17,443 nt of DNA, from assembly GCA_043799385.1 (NCBI GenBank), contig JAZDNV010000004.1, forward strand, positions 1 through 17,443, in the 5' to 3' direction. Below are positions 4,203 through 12,728 of the stretch, piece by piece (the stretch's first letter is position 1; the number at the start of each line of letters is the position of its first letter). Both the position numbers and the translations under genes were made by a program. Source of the stretch: Candidatus Aenigmatarchaeota archaeon (GTDB taxonomy: Archaea; Aenigmatarchaeota; Aenigmatarchaeia; GW2011-AR5). The notes under the pieces were generated by a model. It worked only from the letters and a program-made list of their open reading frames with translations. It was not told the DNA's origin and ran no database searches.

Positions 4203-4511
4203 CTATTTTTTCTTAATGTTTTTATATGGATAGTGAATTGTTTTATCGCAGGAAAAGCATTTAATACTTACCTTGCCCTTGTTTAGTCTCTGACGACAAC
4301 TGACACCTGGCAAAAAGTAATTGTAGCAGTATTTGCAGAAGCGCCGTTTCAGTCGCCCGAGCCTTATATTATAGCGCATGCCAATCTTTTTCGCCAGACG
4401 CGTGTAGCGTTTTGCCAGTTCCGGGTCTTCTTTAACCGTCTTCTGTGCCTCGTTGAACAATATCGCTATGCGCTCTTTCGCAATCTTCAATTGCTCGACT
4501 GGTTTCTCCAT
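4203..4511 (-). CDS. rnp4: Ribonuclease P protein component 4 (Rpp21/Rpr2)
   Basis: IAKERIAILF...LAKRY..LAKKI...KRRFCKYC...C..C...YPY. Canonical position upstream of rps19e. Confidence 0.95.
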   Translation of the reverse strand: MEKPVEQLKIAKERIAILFNEAQKTVKEDPELAKRYTRLAKKIGMRYNIRLGRLKRRFCKYCYNYFLPGVSCRQRLNKGKVSIKCFSCDKTIHYPYKNIKKK

Positions 4512-7731: not shown

Positions 7732-8277
7732 ATGAACAAGTTCTGGCCGCCCGTACTTGCAACAGCATTAATAATGATAGTCGTCTTTGTGAGCGGCTGC
7801 ACGCAGTCGACGCAATCGCCTCAGACGAAAACATGCCCAAACGGTGCGGTTATCAATTCAAATGAAAACTGCCCAACTTACTGGTGCGGAGACAAATCAT
7901 GCCTGCCAGGCTCCTATAACGGCTATACTGAAAACTGCACGACCTGCCCAAGCGACTGCGGGGAGTGCCCTTCAGCAACGACAAGCAGGTTCAATGTCGC
8001 AAAGGTAAGCTGTGACGATGTGCTATCGCAACTTAAACTTACAATAAAAAATATCTACAACGAAAGCGTAAATGTGCAGGAGGTTTCTGTCAATCTGGTG
8101 AAAGATGAAGTATCAACAACGAAGAAGCAGAACCCAAACAAGATTTTTGCGCCAGGAGAAGAATTATCGTTCATCTTCCCGACGCTGTGCAACATAGATT
8201 ACTTCCAGATTGAAGTTACTTACGTGGATTCAAAAGGGACTCACAAAGACTATGGGAACAGGTACGAGATACCATAA
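7732..8277 (+). CDS. Putative lipoprotein with a Cys-rich module and C-terminal Ig-like/beta domain
   Basis: Hydrophobic signal ending in lipobox VSGC. CGDKSC...ENCTTCPSDCGEC motif. LTIKN...APGE pattern is typical of CARDB/pilin-like folds. Confidence 0.85.
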   Translation: MNKFWPPVLATALIMIVVFVSGCTQSTQSPQTKTCPNGAVINSNENCPTYWCGDKSCLPGSYNGYTENCTTCPSDCGECPSATTSRFNVAKVSCDDVLSQLKLTIKNIYNESVNVQEVSVNLVKDEVSTTKKQNPNKIFAPGEELSFIFPTLCNIDYFQIEVTYVDSKGTHKDYGNRYEIP

Positions 8278-8346
8278 ATTAACATTCAGGCCCTGTATTC
8301 CACTACCGAGCCATTTTCGAATATTATTCTCTTAGGCATGATATAA

Positions 8347-9567
8347 ATGGGAATTCTCAACCGTATAAGAAATGTCTTTAGGGAAGAACAAAAGATTACT
8401 GAGTTGGAGATATCACTGGAAGACCTTATTCTCAGGCTGGATAAAAGAACCGATGAGCAGAATAAAGAAATAACTGAAAAGTCCTATGAAAGAATAAAAC
8501 CAATTGAAAATGAACTTGATTCCCTAAAAAGGTCGATAGACGAATTTGAAAAGCTTGAGCATGCAGGCGTGTTGGAAGGCTCAAAGGCGGTCAAAGAAAG
8601 ATTCTGCCAGTATTCAAAGAATCAGTTAGATGCGATAATAAAGCCGTCAAAAAACCTGCACGAAATAAGATATTTTTTGAACAACACATACAGTATAATC
8701 AATAATCTTGGCGGTCTGACGCCCAGGCAATTGATGCATATAGAAATCTTTTTCAAGGCAGATTTCATGCCAATGGCCAAGAAGGTGCGGGAAATAAGCA
8801 ACATGGTCAACGAAACCATGGGAATCATGAAAAGCGATTCAGAATTCTATGGTCATATAAAAGACATTCATGAAAAAATGAAAGAACTCGACAATGTCAT
8901 AATCCGGAAGAATAGCTATATGGAATCGTTGAGCAAAGAAATAGAGAAGTTGAGCAAAGAAAATGAACAGATATCTGGTGAGATAAGCAAAATAGACATT
9001 TCGGACAGCGGCGCGATAGATGAACTTGAGAAGAATATAGACCTCATTAAACAGGAAATATTATCTTTTCTGTCAATAGAGAAATTGCTTAAAATTTTGG
9101 TCCATGAGAAAGGGATAAAGGACTGGCTGCTTGATCTATACATAGAATCGCCGGTTACAGCTTTGCTCAGCGACAGGGATATGAAGATAAATCATTTCAT
9201 AAAAGAGGCGCTGAAACTCACCGAGAAAGGCGACATGGAAGTAGAGAAAAAGAAGATAGACAAGGCCAAAAAAATAATAGATAGTACCGATTACCTGAAA
9301 AGCAAGAAAAAGGAACTTTCAGAAGCGATGAACGAGCTAAAGAAAAAGAAGGAATACCTGAATAATGTGATTGCCCCTGAGATAGAGAAGAAGAAAAGGC
9401 GTGTGAACGAAAAGATCAGGATTGAATCTAACATAAAAAATCTAGAAAAATCCATGGAAGAAATACCAAAGGCTATTGAAGAAGCAGAAACAGGGAAGAA
9501 AGAATCGAAGAACGAGATTGCAACAATAGCCTCAAAAATAATGGGAGTGAAAGTGAAGATAAGGTAA
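8347..9567 (+). CDS. Hypothetical long coiled-coil protein (406 aa)
   Basis: Long E/K/I/L-rich heptad-like ORF. No Walker A motif seen. Confidence 0.88.
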   Translation: MGILNRIRNVFREEQKITELEISLEDLILRLDKRTDEQNKEITEKSYERIKPIENELDSLKRSIDEFEKLEHAGVLEGSKAVKERFCQYSKNQLDAIIKPSKNLHEIRYFLNNTYSIINNLGGLTPRQLMHIEIFFKADFMPMAKKVREISNMVNETMGIMKSDSEFYGHIKDIHEKMKELDNVIIRKNSYMESLSKEIEKLSKENEQISGEISKIDISDSGAIDELEKNIDLIKQEILSFLSIEKLLKILVHEKGIKDWLLDLYIESPVTALLSDRDMKINHFIKEALKLTEKGDMEVEKKKIDKAKKIIDSTDYLKSKKKELSEAMNELKKKKEYLNNVIAPEIEKKKRRVNEKIRIESNIKNLEKSMEEIPKAIEEAETGKKESKNEIATIASKIMGVKVKIR

Positions 9568-9597
9568 TCTACTCTGCAAAAAAATATCCGAATCAAT

Positions 9598-9894
9598 TCA
9601 TCTATTTGGTGTAGAATCCGACCGATCATACAATCTTAACCGGTCTTCTACGTATACAAATATTGCCCTGTAAAGATAGCCTTCAGGGGTGTCGTCGATA
9701 AACAGGCTGGGATTGCGCGCTGCCATGTTCAATAATGAATTTACGCATCCTTTATAATATTCGATACCTTTCAACTCTCCCTTATCCACAAGGCTTCGTG
9801 CTTCACCGGCAAGTTTAGGTTCAGTTGACTGCATATCTTCCCATGCCAGTCCAAAATAACTGCCCAACGGGTCCTTGTTGTTTGATTCAGACAT
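9598..9894 (-). CDS. Hypothetical protein (98 aa)
   Basis: ATG start with upstream GGGGTG SD-like sequence and TTTAAAT TATA. Fills the gap. Confidence 0.7.
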   Translation of the reverse strand: MSESNNKDPLGSYFGLAWEDMQSTEPKLAGEARSLVDKGELKGIEYYKGCVNSLLNMAARNPSLFIDDTPEGYLYRAIFVYVEDRLRLYDRSDSTPNR

Positions 9895-10015
9895 ATCTAA
9901 CGCACCCCTTAAGATTATAGCTATTTCCCGGTATTTAAAGATATCTATATTTCACTACTTAGAGGTAAATATAAGCCTCCGTAGTTAAATGAACAAAAGC
10001 GAGCGTTTTGAGGTC

Positions 10016-10186
10016 TTATCTCTTCTTGCTTTTTTTCATGGGCCTGTAGGCTGAAGCGCCTATCATGATTATCCCTAGCAAGCCAAAGAACGCAGGGAAA
10101 ACTCCAAGGCCCTCTTTTACGAAAAGCAGCGCCAGTGCTGTTATCGCTATCAACGCTATCCCGACCCAGAACATTGGTTTATTCAT
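10016..10186 (-). CDS. Small two-TM membrane protein (56 aa)
   Basis: MNKPMFWVGIALIAITALALLF...FFGLLGIIMIGA plus a basic tail. Start moved to ATG 10186. Confidence 0.75.
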   Translation of the reverse strand: MNKPMFWVGIALIAITALALLFVKEGLGVFPAFFGLLGIIMIGASAYRPMKKSKKR

Positions 10187-10278
10187 GACATAATGTATCA
10201 GGACGATAATAAAAAGTTTTGAAAAGCCTACACGCATAAGAATTATAAATAACCAATCTAATAGTTATAGTAGATTAC

Positions 10279-10812
10279 ATGATAATTGAATTAATCCAGC
10301 TTTTTGTATTGAGCGTGATAATCAGAAGCATAAAGACAATCGAAGATATAACACAAATCGGAGGGCATAAGACAATCACCGCTTTTCTGATAGTAATTGA
10401 AACGGTGTTCTTTCTTTATGTTTTCAGGGCGATCGTATTGAGCGACCTGAACCTGTTTTTGCTCGTTGCAGTCGCTGGCGGATATGTGGCAGGATATTAC
10501 CTTGGGTCAATCATAGAAGATAAGATGGCGCTTGGAAAGCTGATTGTTACAATCAAGATTTCGAAAAGTCATTCAAAACATCTTTCTAAAATACTGAGAG
10601 ACAACGGCTTTGTTTTCATACAGTCAAAAAGGTTCTACACCCACAAGGGAAAGCTGAGAAAAATACACCAGGGAATAATATACAGGAAAGAGCTGCCAAA
10701 GCTAAAACATATAACAAAGGACCTGCCAATAATCGCTACGGTCGAAGACGTGAAATCCACGTTCGGCAAGAAAATAATCAGCTCCAAGGACTACCTTGAG
10801 GCGAACAAATAA
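10279..10812 (+). CDS. UPF0316-like (DUF5698/DUF2179) membrane protein
   Basis: Three TM segments followed by AGGYVAGYYLGSIIEDKMALG, then a soluble domain with LRDNGF. Confidence 0.8.
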   Translation: MIIELIQLFVLSVIIRSIKTIEDITQIGGHKTITAFLIVIETVFFLYVFRAIVLSDLNLFLLVAVAGGYVAGYYLGSIIEDKMALGKLIVTIKISKSHSKHLSKILRDNGFVFIQSKRFYTHKGKLRKIHQGIIYRKELPKLKHITKDLPIIATVEDVKSTFGKKIISSKDYLEANK

Positions 10813-10845
10813 CCGCTGGAGACTTAATTGTGTCACTATAGCGGT
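10812..10845 (+). terminator. Stem-loop directly after the stop codon
   Basis: ACCGCT...GAC TTAATTGT GTC...AGCGGT inverted repeat. Function not established. Confidence 0.3.
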
Positions 10846-10927
10846 ATTCACTAAATCGTAATTAAAATTACACAGCTTTAAGTAGTATACAGTATATAAT
10901 ATATTTAGGAATATATAGGTGAGAAAT

Positions 10928-11032
10928 ATGAAATATACAATTCGAAAGTTAACAATAAGTTCTTTATTGACACGAGCAGTATGGCAACTTAAGGATAACT
11001 TCTCACAATTTTATCCTAGACCAAACGTTTGA
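10928..11032 (+). CDS. Putative 34-aa micro-ORF or leader peptide
   Basis: GGTGA SD 5 nt before ATG. MKYTIRKLTISSLLTRAVWQLKDNFSQFYPRPNV*. TATA-like CTTTAAGTA at ~10876-10884. Confidence 0.45.
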   Translation: MKYTIRKLTISSLLTRAVWQLKDNFSQFYPRPNV

Positions 11033-11059
11033 CATCCAATTTAGGAACTTATCATATTT

Positions 11060-11339
11060 GATAGGCTGATAACGTGGCACCAAGGTTCCTCAATGTGAGG
11101 AGCTCACTACTGACATAATTCAGCGATTTTGCTGGAAGAGACTGCATCATTCGGCTTTTGAACCGAAAAAGATAACCCAACAATGACAAGAGAAAGACAT
11201 TAATAATGTGCGTTAATAATGGGCGTGAAAACTTATCATTCTGGGTTTGCAAATTTGACGTGTTCAGTCTTCTTGGAAATCAGTAATCTAAAGGTCAGGG
11301 TTTCTGAGACTCAGTCGCCAAAACCACGTTATCCCTATT
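11060..11339 (+). ncRNA. Candidate ~280-nt multibranched structured RNA, family unrecognised
   Basis: Closing stem GATAACGTGG (11068-77)/CCACGTTATC (11324-33) plus ATAGG/CCTAT. At least seven nested compatible helices, several with G-U pairs on +. Followed by a T-rich tract (11344-11360). Confidence 0.7.
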
Positions 11340-11380
11340 AGAATTTTATTTATTTTTATTGATCGTAAACGGTGAGAAAT

Positions 11381-11491
11381 ATGAAAACATGTATTAAATG
11401 CGATAAGAGTTTTAAGGAAAAACAAGATTATTATAATCTATGTTATGATTGCTGGAAAGCTGACATGAAGAATAATAAGGGTTATTTCTGA
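11381..11491 (+). CDS. 36-aa CxxC-x13-CxxC zinc-finger micro-protein (not in the ORF track)
   Basis: GGTGA SD. MKTCIKCDKSFKEKQDYYNLCYDCWKADMKNNKGYF*. Confidence 0.75.
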   Translation: MKTCIKCDKSFKEKQDYYNLCYDCWKADMKNNKGYF

Positions 11492-11522
11492 TTGATGGAC
11501 TTTCTTTGAATAGAAAAGAGAC

Positions 11523-11762
11523 TTATGGACGGCACGAATCTTTTTCTGGCATGTCTTTTATTTCAATTTTTGTCTTTTCCTTGTATCTTTCGCGGAGGTC
11601 GTATATCCAACCATAGCCTTCGGCTATCAAGTCCTTGTCAACCCCTTGGTTAGTTTCTCCGTTCAGCCATGCGATTACCTCCTTTAAATCGGCTCTTCCG
11701 AAATCTTCTCTTTTACTGTTTCCATTCAACCAGGACATCAGCTGCCTCTTTGTTGCGTACAT
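11523..11762 (-). CDS. Hypothetical protein (79 aa)
   Basis: ATG start. Internal duplicated SWLNG/AWLNG motif. TATA-like CTTAAG upstream. Confidence 0.65.
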   Translation of the reverse strand: MYATKRQLMSWLNGNSKREDFGRADLKEVIAWLNGETNQGVDKDLIAEGYGWIYDLRERYKEKTKIEIKDMPEKDSCRP

Positions 11763-11805
11763 ATCTATAATTATGTATCCAAAGTTCCTTAAGATAGTCT
11801 TTTCG

Positions 11806-12270
11806 CTAAGAATAATTCTTCAATTCAAGTAAGTGCTGATGTTGCCATTCTCGTTCTTTAGCTACGGCATCGTCAGAACCGGTGGCTCTATGGATGGCCT
11901 GTTGGGCATAAATTGCAGGACCATAAGAATGTCGTGGAACATGAGCTGTTGCTACTGCCTGGCCGGCGGCACGGGCAGCAGAGCGAGCCGCATTGTTCTC
12001 TCCTACTTCGCGGGCAGCAGCATGAGCGTCAAGCGAAGCCTTGCGAATAACTGCCATCTTAAACACCCCTGTATCTATCCAAGTACGTAAGGTCGTGATA
12101 GCGTTTCGAGGGCGATTGTCTTCCGGATATTTTTCATCAAAGTACGGCAGGACACGCTTAGCGCAGTCAGCAGCCCAGACTGCTAATGTTTTATGGTCAG
12201 TTTTGCTCGCAAGCTTTACAATTCTCTCGTCTTTGTAGCGTGTAAGTGAAAATTTGGATTTTTCTTTCAT
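11806..12270 (-). CDS. Imm5-like 'putative immunity protein' (154 aa)
   Basis: HKTLAVWAADCAKRVLPYF...PEDNRPRNAI...AHAAARE...AARAAGQAVATAHVPRH...YA...EREWQ signature. Start moved to ATG 12270 because the longer ORF overlaps the tRNA. Confidence 0.85.
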   Translation of the reverse strand: MKEKSKFSLTRYKDERIVKLASKTDHKTLAVWAADCAKRVLPYFDEKYPEDNRPRNAITTLRTWIDTGVFKMAVIRKASLDAHAAAREVGENNAARSAARAAGQAVATAHVPRHSYGPAIYAQQAIHRATGSDDAVAKEREWQHQHLLELKNYS

Positions 12271-12288
12271 ATTCTCACAAAAGTTTAG

Positions 12289-12437
12289 AGCCTCCGGAGG
12301 GAATTGAACCCCCAACCTTCTGTTTACAAAACAGATGCTCTTTCCTGAGACCTTTCTAAGATAATGCCACTTGTTTCTTTGAATCCAAGGGCCTTTCTTT
12401 ACAAAGAAAGGGGCTTGCCAGGTTGAGCTACAGAGGC
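12289..12437 (-). tRNA. tRNA-Thr(UGU) with a 75-nt D-loop intron (exons 12437-12417 and 12341-12289)
   Basis: Acceptor GCCTCTG/CGGAGGC, D-stem GCTC/GAGC, anticodon arm TCTGT-TTTGTAA-ACAGA, T-arm GGGGG-TTCAATT-CCCTC. CCA is not encoded. Confidence 0.95.
12342..12416 (-). other. Non-canonical tRNA intron (position ~20/21) with a BHB-like splice motif
   Basis: Central helix CCTG/CAGG followed by 3-nt GCA and AAA. Cutting after the second nt of each restores the D-loop AACCTGGCA. Confidence 0.88.
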
Positions 12438-12491
12438 TTAATACATTAAGAGAACGGGAAGGTTTTTATCCTTTTTCTACATATTGGCAGT

Positions 12492-12728
12492 ATGACAGGA
12501 ACCAAAAGTCTGGACGAGGCGATTGGCTATGCTAAATTCGATATGCTTAGGTTTGAATATTTTAATTCTGTAAAGGGGAGCGTAATCTACCGGATAACAA
12601 ACAGCAAATCAAACCTGTCATGGATGCTTGAAATCCCGACCCAGTTGTATGAAGAATTGGGAAAGCCCATGCGGACTGACGGCGAAAAATTGCGCAAAAA
12701 GTTCGAAACCTTGGCTAAAAATCCATAG
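12492..12728 (+). CDS. Hypothetical protein (78 aa)
   Basis: ATG start ~25 nt after TTTTTAT, divergent from the tRNA. Fills the gap. Confidence 0.65.
   Translation: MTGTKSLDEAIGYAKFDMLRFEYFNSVKGSVIYRITNSKSNLSWMLEIPTQLYEELGKPMRTDGEKLRKKFETLAKNP

Follow-up and report, generated by a model that had tools for sequence, protein, structure and literature searches.

The window analysed here, a stretch of 17,443 nucleotides from Candidatus Aenigmatarchaeota archaeon (contig JAZDNV010000004.1), contains at positions 10830-11491 a unit of ~660 bp with all parts on the + strand, which is proposed to be one self-contained regulated transcription unit confined to one family of Aenigmatarchaeota within the DPANN archaea. 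The order along this strand is an AT-rich promoter region, a first open reading frame (ORF1), a structured RNA of 287 nt, a T-rich tract and a second ORF encoding a zinc-finger protein. The leading reading, to which we assign a probability of about 0.4, takes the unit for an RNA-microprotein module that a single regulated promoter transcribes. An initial annotation, made from the letters of the window, had described an identical 16-mer at the head of a 34-aa ORF and of a 36-aa ORF with two CxxC motifs, a ~280-nt RNA and a T-rich tract between the two, and the whole on the + strand behind one AT-rich promoter region. All of this was recovered, both copies of the 16-mer being read from the sequence, the RNA placed at 11057-11343, the T-rich tract at 11344-11360 and a TATA-like CTTTAAGT at 10876-10883. 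The annotation's proposal of an undescribed RNA plus micro-protein unit was likewise upheld by co-occurrence of the parts in relatives, covarying helices, the lack of an Rfam match to the RNA and selection on the zinc-finger ORF. The coordinates of the features are collected in Table 1.

Table 1. Features of the unit, with positions counted from the first letter of the window; SD, Shine-Dalgarno sequence; MFE, minimum free energy; P1 to P6, helices of the RNA.
Feature	Position	Strand	Remark
Conserved upstream block with GTGTCACTAT, TATTCACTAAA and palindrome GTAAT-N4-ATTAC	10830..10875	+	Alignable in 5 relatives, weakly in G011
TATA-box-like CTTTAAGT	10876..10883	+	CTTTAAGT, CTTTATAT or CTTTAATA in all 6 promoter-bearing loci
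16-mer copy 1: SD GGTGA, 5-nt spacer, ATG, AAA	10918..10933	+	
ORF1, 34 aa, weakly constrained leader micro-ORF	10928..11032	+	ATG 10928, stop 11030-11032
Structured RNA, long form, 287 nt	11057..11343	+	Homologues G022, G026, G011, L042, L047, L048, L049
P1 5' strand (P1a 11058-11065, P1b 11068-11077)	11058..11077	+	Pairs with 11324-11341; 18 pairs, 4 changed on both sides, 88.6% paired
P2 variable hairpin	11084..11104	+	In MFE fold of each of 6 full homologues, sequences differ
Invariant junction ACUGAC	11109..11114	+	Can pair with UCAGU 11311-11315 (P6, pseudoknot with P4)
P3 hairpin UUCAGC-GAUUUU-GCUGGA, near-invariant loop	11119..11136	+	95.2% paired
Conserved GGAAGAGAC	11134..11142	+	Alternative pairing with GUCUUCUU at 11267-11274
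Optional central domain, two hairpins	11143..11247	+	Present in window, L042, G022, G026, L049; absent in G011, L047, L048
3' domain: P4 (11254-11260 with 11316-11322) enclosing loop UGUUCAG and hairpin P5 (11271-11280 with 11300-11309)	11254..11322	+	
T-rich tract	11344..11360	+	Read directly from sequence
16-mer copy 2: SD GGTGA, 5-nt spacer, ATG, AAA	11371..11386	+	
Zinc-finger micro-gene, 36 aa, CxxC-x13-CxxC-W, net basic	11381..11491	+	ATG 11381, stop 11489-11491

The genome holding the window (G000, in which the window is contig C9) comprises 786,014 bases in 31 contigs and is 91% complete. Genomes of relatives are given G-numbers and contig or metagenome loci L-numbers, L010, L011 and L012 corresponding to G022, G026 and G011. 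The parts also recur together outside the window: six distinct loci (window, G022, G026, G011, L042 and L047) have the RNA and the zinc-finger gene with order and strand unchanged, and ORF1 is present as well in five of them. A long RNA stands between ORF1 and the zinc-finger gene in the window, L042, G022 and G026, and a short RNA in L047. The RNA of G011 is also short, ORF1 is missing and the promoter abuts stem P1 directly. In every locus homology starts at GTGTCACTAT and ends at the stop codon of the zinc-finger gene, and the flanking genes differ between genera; the window and L042 have a downstream gene of 79/88 aa in common.

These loci were assembled by several searches. A DNA search of 61 genomes (60 relatives and G000) returned collinear promoter/ORF1 and RNA/ORF2 matches in G022 and G026 and a match to the RNA core in G011; it also gave matches of 24-30 nt in G060, G058 and G039, at places none of which came back in the protein or covariance model (CM) searches. 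A 24-nt degenerate motif from the most conserved block of the RNA was then used to scan contigs. Among genome contigs it matched 12 loci, of which three were archaeal, had a second conserved block and proved to be the stretches of G022, G026 and G011, the other nine being bacterial and without the second block. Eight of the 14 loci in metagenome contigs were true and six were unrelated coding sequence. L039 and L043 duplicate G026 and L050 duplicates G022, leaving L042, L047, L040, L048 and L049 as new, L040 being the same as L047 from inside P1 onward with different sequence upstream. Pattern matches to the RNA motif in G039, G001 and G012 were rejected as false, being located in coding sequence. 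A profile of the zinc-finger protein matched six of the 70 genomes of the order, adding G024 and G032, the latter on a contig that begins 30 nt before the zinc-finger gene and is identical in sequence to L047. The scan of viral contigs gave no locus for the RNA motif and no match to the zinc-finger profile, on which grounds a viral origin of the unit was rejected.

Further relatives were present in DNA contigs of two metagenome studies, where two contig ends pass from the position equivalent to 11142 straight into the ACAAAUUUG block, which is the arrangement of the short form. Contigs from four runs gave short pieces of relatives, none of them across the whole unit. One contig joint, of 10888 to 11105, has a side of only 26 nt and undetermined letters between, and was taken as the divergent 5' part of a relative rather than as a deletion. 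As a separate observation, L040 and L047 are identical through the zinc-finger gene and beyond, and contig C31 of G032, from the same species, breaks 30 nt before that gene, which points either to rearrangement at the cassette between strains or to a chimeric assembly.

The fold of the RNA was built on an alignment of seven sequences comprising 46 pairs and 301 cells. The 287-nt stretch is closed by an interrupted stem of 18 bp (P1), and the consensus reads from 5' to 3' two-segment P1, P2, ACUGAC, P3 (UCRGC-GAUUUU-GCYGGA), AGAGAC, the central domain, ACAAA, P4 and P5, with P4 having the consensus UUUGRYR:YRYCAAA and enclosing a conserved internal loop and P5. The length ranges from 170 nt, in the short form of L047, to 290 nt, and the optional central domain measures ~80-105 nt. 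Of the cells belonging to the 46 pairs of five helices 91.7% are paired, against 36.5-51.5% when the 3' partners were slid by 1-3 columns. The 3' domain, with 17 pairs, four of them compensatory, is 93.3% paired (22-66% when slid), and the consensus of the central domain has 19 pairs with three compensatory changes. The clearest compensatory case is pair 79:90 of P3, which is A-U in four sequences and G-C in three. Nine pairs are changed on both sides, a count reached by 9 of 500 shuffles, and the covariation score of 0.251 was reached by 1 of 500, shuffle counts that overstate significance for related sequences. Blocks of 17-24 nt in the RNA are identical across genera while synonymous sites of the zinc-finger gene are saturated, the proportion of synonymous differences (pS) being 0.55-0.90.

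The folding energy gave z = -2.49 for the + strand versus z = -4.37 for the - strand, and by itself would be weak evidence for an RNA, the case for which comes from the comparison with relatives. Since the proposed pairs include 43 G-U cells and 9 A.C cells, the RNA is on the + strand. An RNA on the opposite strand, equally favoured by thermodynamic folding, was ruled out by this count together with the orientation of the promoter, the SD sequences and the ORFs.

A search of the whole window against Rfam 15 matched the tRNA alone. The local scan of 10780-11560 gave a best E-value of 0.47, with none of the five matches up to E = 10 being to RF00373 (RNase P RNA), and the same library returned nothing but tRNAs at E <= 0.1 for six homologous loci. 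No account of the RNA was found in the main texts of the literature searched or under the terms looked up in a 2026 preprint on prokaryotic non-coding space. It is a new family of narrow distribution within a known general category. The notion that it is a divergent housekeeping RNA, either RNase P RNA or the RNA of the signal recognition particle (SRP), has a probability close to nil. It would draw on a size and closing stem that are compatible, on the presence of the gene for the RNase P subunit Rpp21 in the window, and on the best match of RF00373 anywhere in G000 being 6.8 bits, at a different place from the cassette, where there is no match. However, G022 and G011 carry the cassette RNA and in addition separate RF00373 matches of 80.1 and 75.3 bits on other contigs, by which RNase P RNA was ruled out, and the archaeal SRP RNA (RF01857) of G000 is at C28:3513-3782 with 125.5 bits and gives no match at the cassette, by which SRP RNA was ruled out. 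The RNA is moreover absent from 66 of the 70 genomes of the order, its helix order is unlike that of RNase P RNA, and the CR-I and CR-V motifs were not seen by eye. The Rpp21 gene itself (4203-4511, - strand) matches Pfam Rpr2 with E = 2.9e-14. RNase P RNA was not found in the 31 contigs of G000 by RF00373, by nhmmer with the RNase P RNA of a relative or by a regular expression for CR-I and CR-V. Its gene either lies in the 9% of the genome that is missing or has become very divergent; RF00373 gave no match in G026 as well.

The second conserved component is the zinc-finger gene, for which six orthologues of 35-36 aa were aligned with M1, C4, C7, F11, Y17, C21, C24 and K30 invariant. The ratio of nonsynonymous to synonymous substitution rates (dN/dS) was 0.13-0.18 in the seven comparisons without G011 for which dS was computable and 0.27-0.57 in the three that involve the divergent copy of G011 and were likewise computable; the remaining 5 of the 15 pairs were saturated. 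As judged from these substitution patterns, the ORF is a real gene under strong purifying selection. The AlphaFold2 model of the protein has two short knuckles and a C-terminal helix from the second CxxC, with a predicted local distance difference test (pLDDT) score of 77.8, and can be read as a treble-clef-like fold. Pfam and NCBIfam held no family above cut-off for the protein, and the ESM Atlas returned unnamed clusters only, at 0.91. Against 1.84 billion representative proteins the profile gave 12 matches at E <= 0.001. Among the five inspected, P0001 (E = 1e-12) and P0004, both of 59 aa, resemble members of the family, two longer proteins (P0006 and P0012, of 86 and 101 aa) have the N-terminal finger alone in common with it, and one resembles an unrelated zinc-finger repeat protein. 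The two longer proteins have an N-terminal C-x2-C-GKSF...C-x2-CW finger and end in an LLQLAHPDRH motif, which we take to be J-domain-like (HPD). A similar C-x2-C-x13-C-x2-C finger occurs in a 78-aa ORF (L011 2851-3087) located 1.1 kb downstream of the G026 cassette.

ORF1 behaves differently. Of the six loci that have the region, five keep the frame open behind an SD at the same 5-nt spacing and the sixth (L049) has a premature stop. Its indels of 3, 6 and 21 nt are in frame, and these results together suggest that ORF1 is probably translated. The dN/dS values of 0.28-0.92 and the nearly even distribution of differences over the codon positions (97/107/128) suggest that the ORF evolves almost neutrally. 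A C-terminus of the form (F/N)Y(P/Q)xPxV is conserved, and apart from this motif the peptide appears to be of little importance. Since ORF1 is absent in G011, it is dispensable; the junction there has an ATATT microhomology that in the window also flanks the ORF1 segment at either end. The distance from the ORF1 stop to P1 is ~12 nt in L047, 22 in L042, 24 in the window, 58 in G022 and 116 in G026. In G022 the last codons and stop of ORF1 are present as an 18-nt tandem triplication (CCAGATGTTTAACCCAAT; L010 1263-1330), the extra copies lying past the stop. Mimicry of the P4 5' strand by the ORF1 stop region was considered and dismissed, the complementarity not being kept across relatives as judged by eye.

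Upstream of the TATA-like box ~45 nt are conserved and include two TCACTA repeats in addition to the palindrome GTAAT-N4-ATTAC. Each of the motifs listed for this block in Table 1 occurs once or twice in the whole genome, and the block is likely a regulator-binding region. Archaeal promoter geometry would place the start of transcription ~25 nt downstream of the TATA-like box, near 10903-10910; in G011 the TATA box is ~25 nt before the first base of P1. In five of seven loci, the exceptions being G011 and L048, the RNA is followed by runs of at least four T, which may serve as an oligo-T signal of the archaeal type for termination or attenuation. The RNA of G011 reaches the SD of the zinc-finger gene after 12 nt. 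Since in G011 and L048 the next SD follows the RNA without an intervening T tract, the RNA and the downstream ORF are most simply placed on one transcript in these two loci.

The 16-mer GGTGAGAAATATGAAA at the two starts is separated by 453 nt from start to start and occurs exactly at these two places only in the 786,014-base genome, which has four sites with two mismatches and 24 with three. Near variants of it head other ORF starts in G000. The pentamer GGTGA, complementary to the 3' end of 16S rRNA, precedes a candidate ATG by no more than 16 nt in 60 of the 1037 ORFs that have 100 codons or more. Its distance from the ATG is mostly 4 or 5 nt, and 12 of the 60 have the 5-nt spacing. The initial annotation had recognised that the repeat might be a common SD context in this genome; it is indeed a genuine SD context that the genome reuses, but one found in just ~6% of the long ORFs. 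Relatives keep the layout GGTGA-N5-ATG-A(A/G)A at both starts, and the two contexts differ at 2 (G022), 4 (L042), 5 (G026) and 4 (L047) of 16 positions. Because of these differences the perfect identity is peculiar to G000, either as a local coincidence or through gene conversion. Judged from the start contexts, the 16-mer pair is a pair of strong ribosome-binding sites of two micro-ORFs and not a duplication junction.

The other proposal of the initial annotation, that a 453-bp insertion or duplication copied the start site, was not sustained, since the identity is lost in relatives and no empty site was found. Read as a scar of such an event, the 16-mers would record how ORF1 and the RNA came to separate the zinc-finger gene from an older promoter, which we consider highly improbable. 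The exact identity of two copies found nowhere else in the genome would fit a scar, as would the 80% identity of the G022 start regions over 25 nt and the behaviour of ORF1 as a separable segment, absent in G011 and with ATATT microhomology at its bounds. Against it, the contexts in relatives differ mostly in the spacer, and the letters in common are the SD, the fixed 5-nt spacer, the ATG and a Lys codon, which other genes use too. Terminal inverted repeats were not seen at the borders of the unit, and the natural variant that is missing a part, G011, has lost ORF1 and not the RNA. Searches of 70 genomes and 14 metagenome loci turned up neither a locus running from promoter to zinc-finger gene nor a site with a single repeat copy. 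Within genus g17 the sequences flanking the G026 cassette matched mainly dispersed repeats and gave no clean empty site, the single syntenic downstream gene (G035) having a different upstream neighbour.

Under the leading reading of an RNA-microprotein module, the conserved promoter and the operator-like upstream block would drive a transcript that opens with the strongly SD-led, weakly constrained ORF1 and continues with the structured RNA of 170-290 nt, behind which, past the T-rich tract, the SD-led gene would provide a basic, treble-clef-like zinc-finger protein of 36 aa. The RNA would be the functional core and the microprotein its dedicated partner, binding either the RNA, as a minimal ribonucleoprotein (RNP), or the unit's own control region. 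The stem and oligo-T after the RNA would stop part of the transcripts and thereby set a high ratio of RNA to protein mRNA.

Several observations weigh against this reading. The partnership is not obligatory, since in L048, a contig that begins inside the RNA, the short RNA is followed by an unrelated 98-aa ORF, with relatives in none of 70 genomes and no Pfam or NCBIfam family. In L049 ORF1 stops after five codons, the RNA is without its 3' domain and the zinc-finger gene is gone, and in G024 a zinc-finger-like gene (36 bits) has upstream just a remnant of the RNA 3' end; both remnants show decay in place. The CM of the RNA 3' domain (R1) scored 74-108 bits in four of the 70 genomes of the order (G000, G022, G026 and G011) and matched two of 151 genomes (G000 and G026) in an even sample of the phylum, which is without G022 and G011. 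Three further matches at 23-28 bits include those in G058 and G001, which lie in coding sequence, and one of 22.9 bits in G040. Many of the genomes surveyed are 65-90% complete, so that absence is unproven in any single genome; given these counts the unit is nevertheless clearly accessory, often lost and dispensable. Support for the fold comes from seven sequences in which most junctions are invariant and is good but not conclusive, and P6 (ACUGA:UCAGU), complementary in six of seven sequences, shows no variation and is neither supported nor refuted. The alternative helix GGAAGAGAC:GUCUUCUU suits a static RNP no better than it suits a switch. A Foldseek search with the zinc-finger model against the PDB gave no neighbour at E <= 0.001, the best having E = 0.44.

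The alternative helix leads to the reading in which the RNA is a cis-acting leader of the riboswitch or attenuator type, that is, the 5' untranslated region (UTR) of the following ORF acting as a two-fold switch. Such a leader would toggle between P3+P4+P5 and the GGAAGAGAC:GUCUUCUU helix; the signal would be a ligand, the zinc-finger protein itself in an autoregulatory loop, or ORF1 translation. Depending on the fold, RNA polymerase would either stop at the T tract or continue into the SD-led ORF. We regard it as possible, with a probability clearly below that of the leading reading. The alternative helix is 91.8% paired (41-55% when slid) with one compensatory change and overlaps P3 and P5, being incompatible with the P3 closing pair and with the base of P5, and the MFE folds of the homologues are divided between the two topologies. 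A same-strand SD-led ORF is found ~10-65 nt behind the RNA in all seven intact loci, including the non-homologous ORF of L048, with T runs between RNA and ORF in five of the seven, and G011 has no room for a separate promoter. Yet no known aptamer class matches, the T tract is missing in two of seven loci, and the genes that would be regulated are a 36-aa protein and the orphan 98-aa ORF, which suggests no ligand. An RNA of 170-290 nt with an optional peripheral domain would also be large for the leader of a microprotein. Coupling to the position of a ribosome is opposed by the absence of ORF1 in G011, by the variable distance to P1 and by the repeat inserted in G026; a leader-peptide attenuator of the trp type was rejected for the first two of these reasons.

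Less probable still is that the conserved junction nucleotides form the active or ligand-binding core of a new complex archaeal RNA, a ribozyme or two-fold sensor, working with the zinc-finger protein. Improbable to a somewhat greater degree is an addiction or defence module like a type III toxin-antitoxin (TA) locus, in which RNA and microprotein neutralise each other and the unit persists selfishly. The sequence shows the order of promoter, RNA, terminator and protein that such a locus has, carriers are scattered even among members of one genus (of 11 genomes of g17, one has the RNA and two the zinc-finger gene), decayed copies exist (L049 and G024), and the variable neighbours are rich in TA-type genes, including the Imm5-like gene in the window and what we take to be PIN/AbrB-like pairs near the G022 cassette and an HicAB-like pair near that of G026. 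On the other side, the RNA is without tandem repeats, the protein of 36 aa is not a ToxN-like endoribonuclease of ~170 aa and is not hydrophobic as type I toxins are, neither RNA motif nor protein has a match in viral contigs, and the remnants in G024 and L049 fit vertical inheritance and loss equally well. The remaining weight is left to an explanation not considered here.

Type III TA loci (ToxIN, CptIN and TenpIN) consist of one promoter, an RNA gene, a leaky terminator and the gene of the RNA's protein partner, and are patchily distributed. The unit has the same order, with the T tract in five of seven loci, and a patchy accessory distribution. The type III antitoxin RNA consists of tandem repeats of 34-36 nt that are cut by the toxin, whereas the cassette RNA is a single complex fold; within 9500-12600 the repeats seen were the 16-mer pair and an unrelated 17-mer only (Tandem Repeats Finder was not run). 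The type III toxin is an endoribonuclease of ~170 aa, in contrast to the zinc finger of 36 aa found here, and no endoribonuclease of the ToxN/AbiQ type was indicated, the protein having no Pfam or NCBIfam family above cut-off (PADLOC was not searched). The dual-function small RNAs SgrS/SgrT, RNAIII/hld and SR1/SR1P likewise combine an SD-led micro-ORF with a structured RNA, here ORF1 and the cassette RNA, which are probably on one transcript. Those RNAs are bacterial and base-pair with target mRNAs. For the cassette RNA no complementarity to a target was found, its conserved motif having no reverse match in the G000 genome, and ORF1 is dispensable in G011.

Autoregulatory leaders, such as those of ribosomal proteins and the archaeal L7Ae K-turn, resemble the unit in having a structured RNA directly upstream of a gene for a small basic protein, which may be able to bind that RNA. 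The cassette RNA is far larger, with its own optional domain and no K-turn or C/D motif seen by eye, and the zinc-finger protein is outside the ribosomal and RNA-binding families of Pfam and NCBIfam. Novel ribosomal leader candidates, 20 in number, have been reported in bacteria and archaea (PMC7247131). One-domain zinc-finger micro-proteins of less than 70 aa with C(P)XCG motifs have been reported in Haloferax volcanii (PMC6562870, PMC11241148). The cassette protein is similarly archaeal, shorter than 70 aa and built of a single four-cysteine zinc-finger domain, but its motifs CIKCD and CYDCW (C-I-x-C-(D/N) and C-x-x-C-W) are without Pro or Gly and show no sequence relationship to C(P)XCG proteins, and those proteins are not known to be coupled to a structured RNA. 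The large orphan RNAs with dedicated protein partners, OLE RNA (with OapA and others), raiA, ROOL and GOLLD, are likewise multi-helix, lineage-restricted RNAs with conserved unpaired nucleotides that were found by comparison; they are bacterial Rfam families, none of which matched, and the cassette RNA differs in being smaller and tied to micro-ORFs.

The carriers are tiny symbiotic archaea. DPANN genomes, of less than 1 Mb, leave little space for dispensable sequence; the unit has been kept together across genera. To our knowledge the structured RNAs described in DPANN archaea are, apart from the universal ones, very few, and zinc-finger micro-proteins, common in archaea, mostly have no known partners. 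Compact at 660 bp and open to testing, the unit is a candidate either for a partnership of RNA and microprotein that is new or for a new RNA switch of archaea, and offers a handle for discovering functions of zinc-finger micro-proteins. If the junction nucleotides do form an active or ligand-binding core that works with the zinc-finger protein, the unit would be among the smallest dedicated RNA-protein machines known and specific to DPANN. If the toggle responds to ORF1 translation, it would be a translation-coupled transcription attenuator, a mechanism of which we know no experimental demonstration in Archaea. General importance is limited by the restriction to one family and the frequent loss.

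Elsewhere in the window are genes for S19e, Rpp21, NeuB, UDP-GlcNAc 2-epimerase, a UbiA prenyltransferase and an M48 peptidase. The G+C content is 0.35-0.40 over 8001-11500 versus 0.40-0.50 elsewhere, and this low-G+C stretch contains a 406-aa coiled-coil protein, several small membrane ORFs and the cassette, with no integrase or repeat borders seen. In G026 repeat elements of ~95-97 nt are present at L011 1260-1355 and 1999-2095, one of them inserted between ORF1 and the RNA and the other present in dozens of copies over five genomes of the same genus. The G011 cassette is bracketed by identical 48-bp direct repeats (TAGCCCCGGGAGGG...; L012 1366-1413 and 1869-1916) located 503 bp apart, with a third, partial copy 1 kb further at L012 2896-2924. 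The repeat may be of the dispersed kind, may mark the boundary of the cassette or may be a site of recombination.

Directly downstream of the unit are the 79-aa ORF, the Imm5-like gene (E = 8.7e-44) and tRNA-Thr. The Imm5-like immunity-protein gene (11806-12362, - strand) adjoins tRNA-Thr(TGT) with no toxin gene recognised alongside; its longest ORF, from TTG at 12315, overlaps the tRNA, so that the real start is probably an ATG near 12270. An integrated element at tRNA-Thr was considered and rejected, as the window holds no tRNA repeat of at least 11 nt able to serve as an attachment (att) site, the sole repeat match being one 11-mer on the other strand at 10683. The tRNA measures 63 nt in the Rfam alignment, with a shortened D-arm region, versus 75 nt by ARAGORN. 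Three loci have, on the opposite strand, a tRNA gene 0.3-1.4 kb downstream of the cassette (window 12288-12362, L011 3113-3261 and L047 390-456), that of G026 spanning 149 nt and therefore probably bearing an intron.

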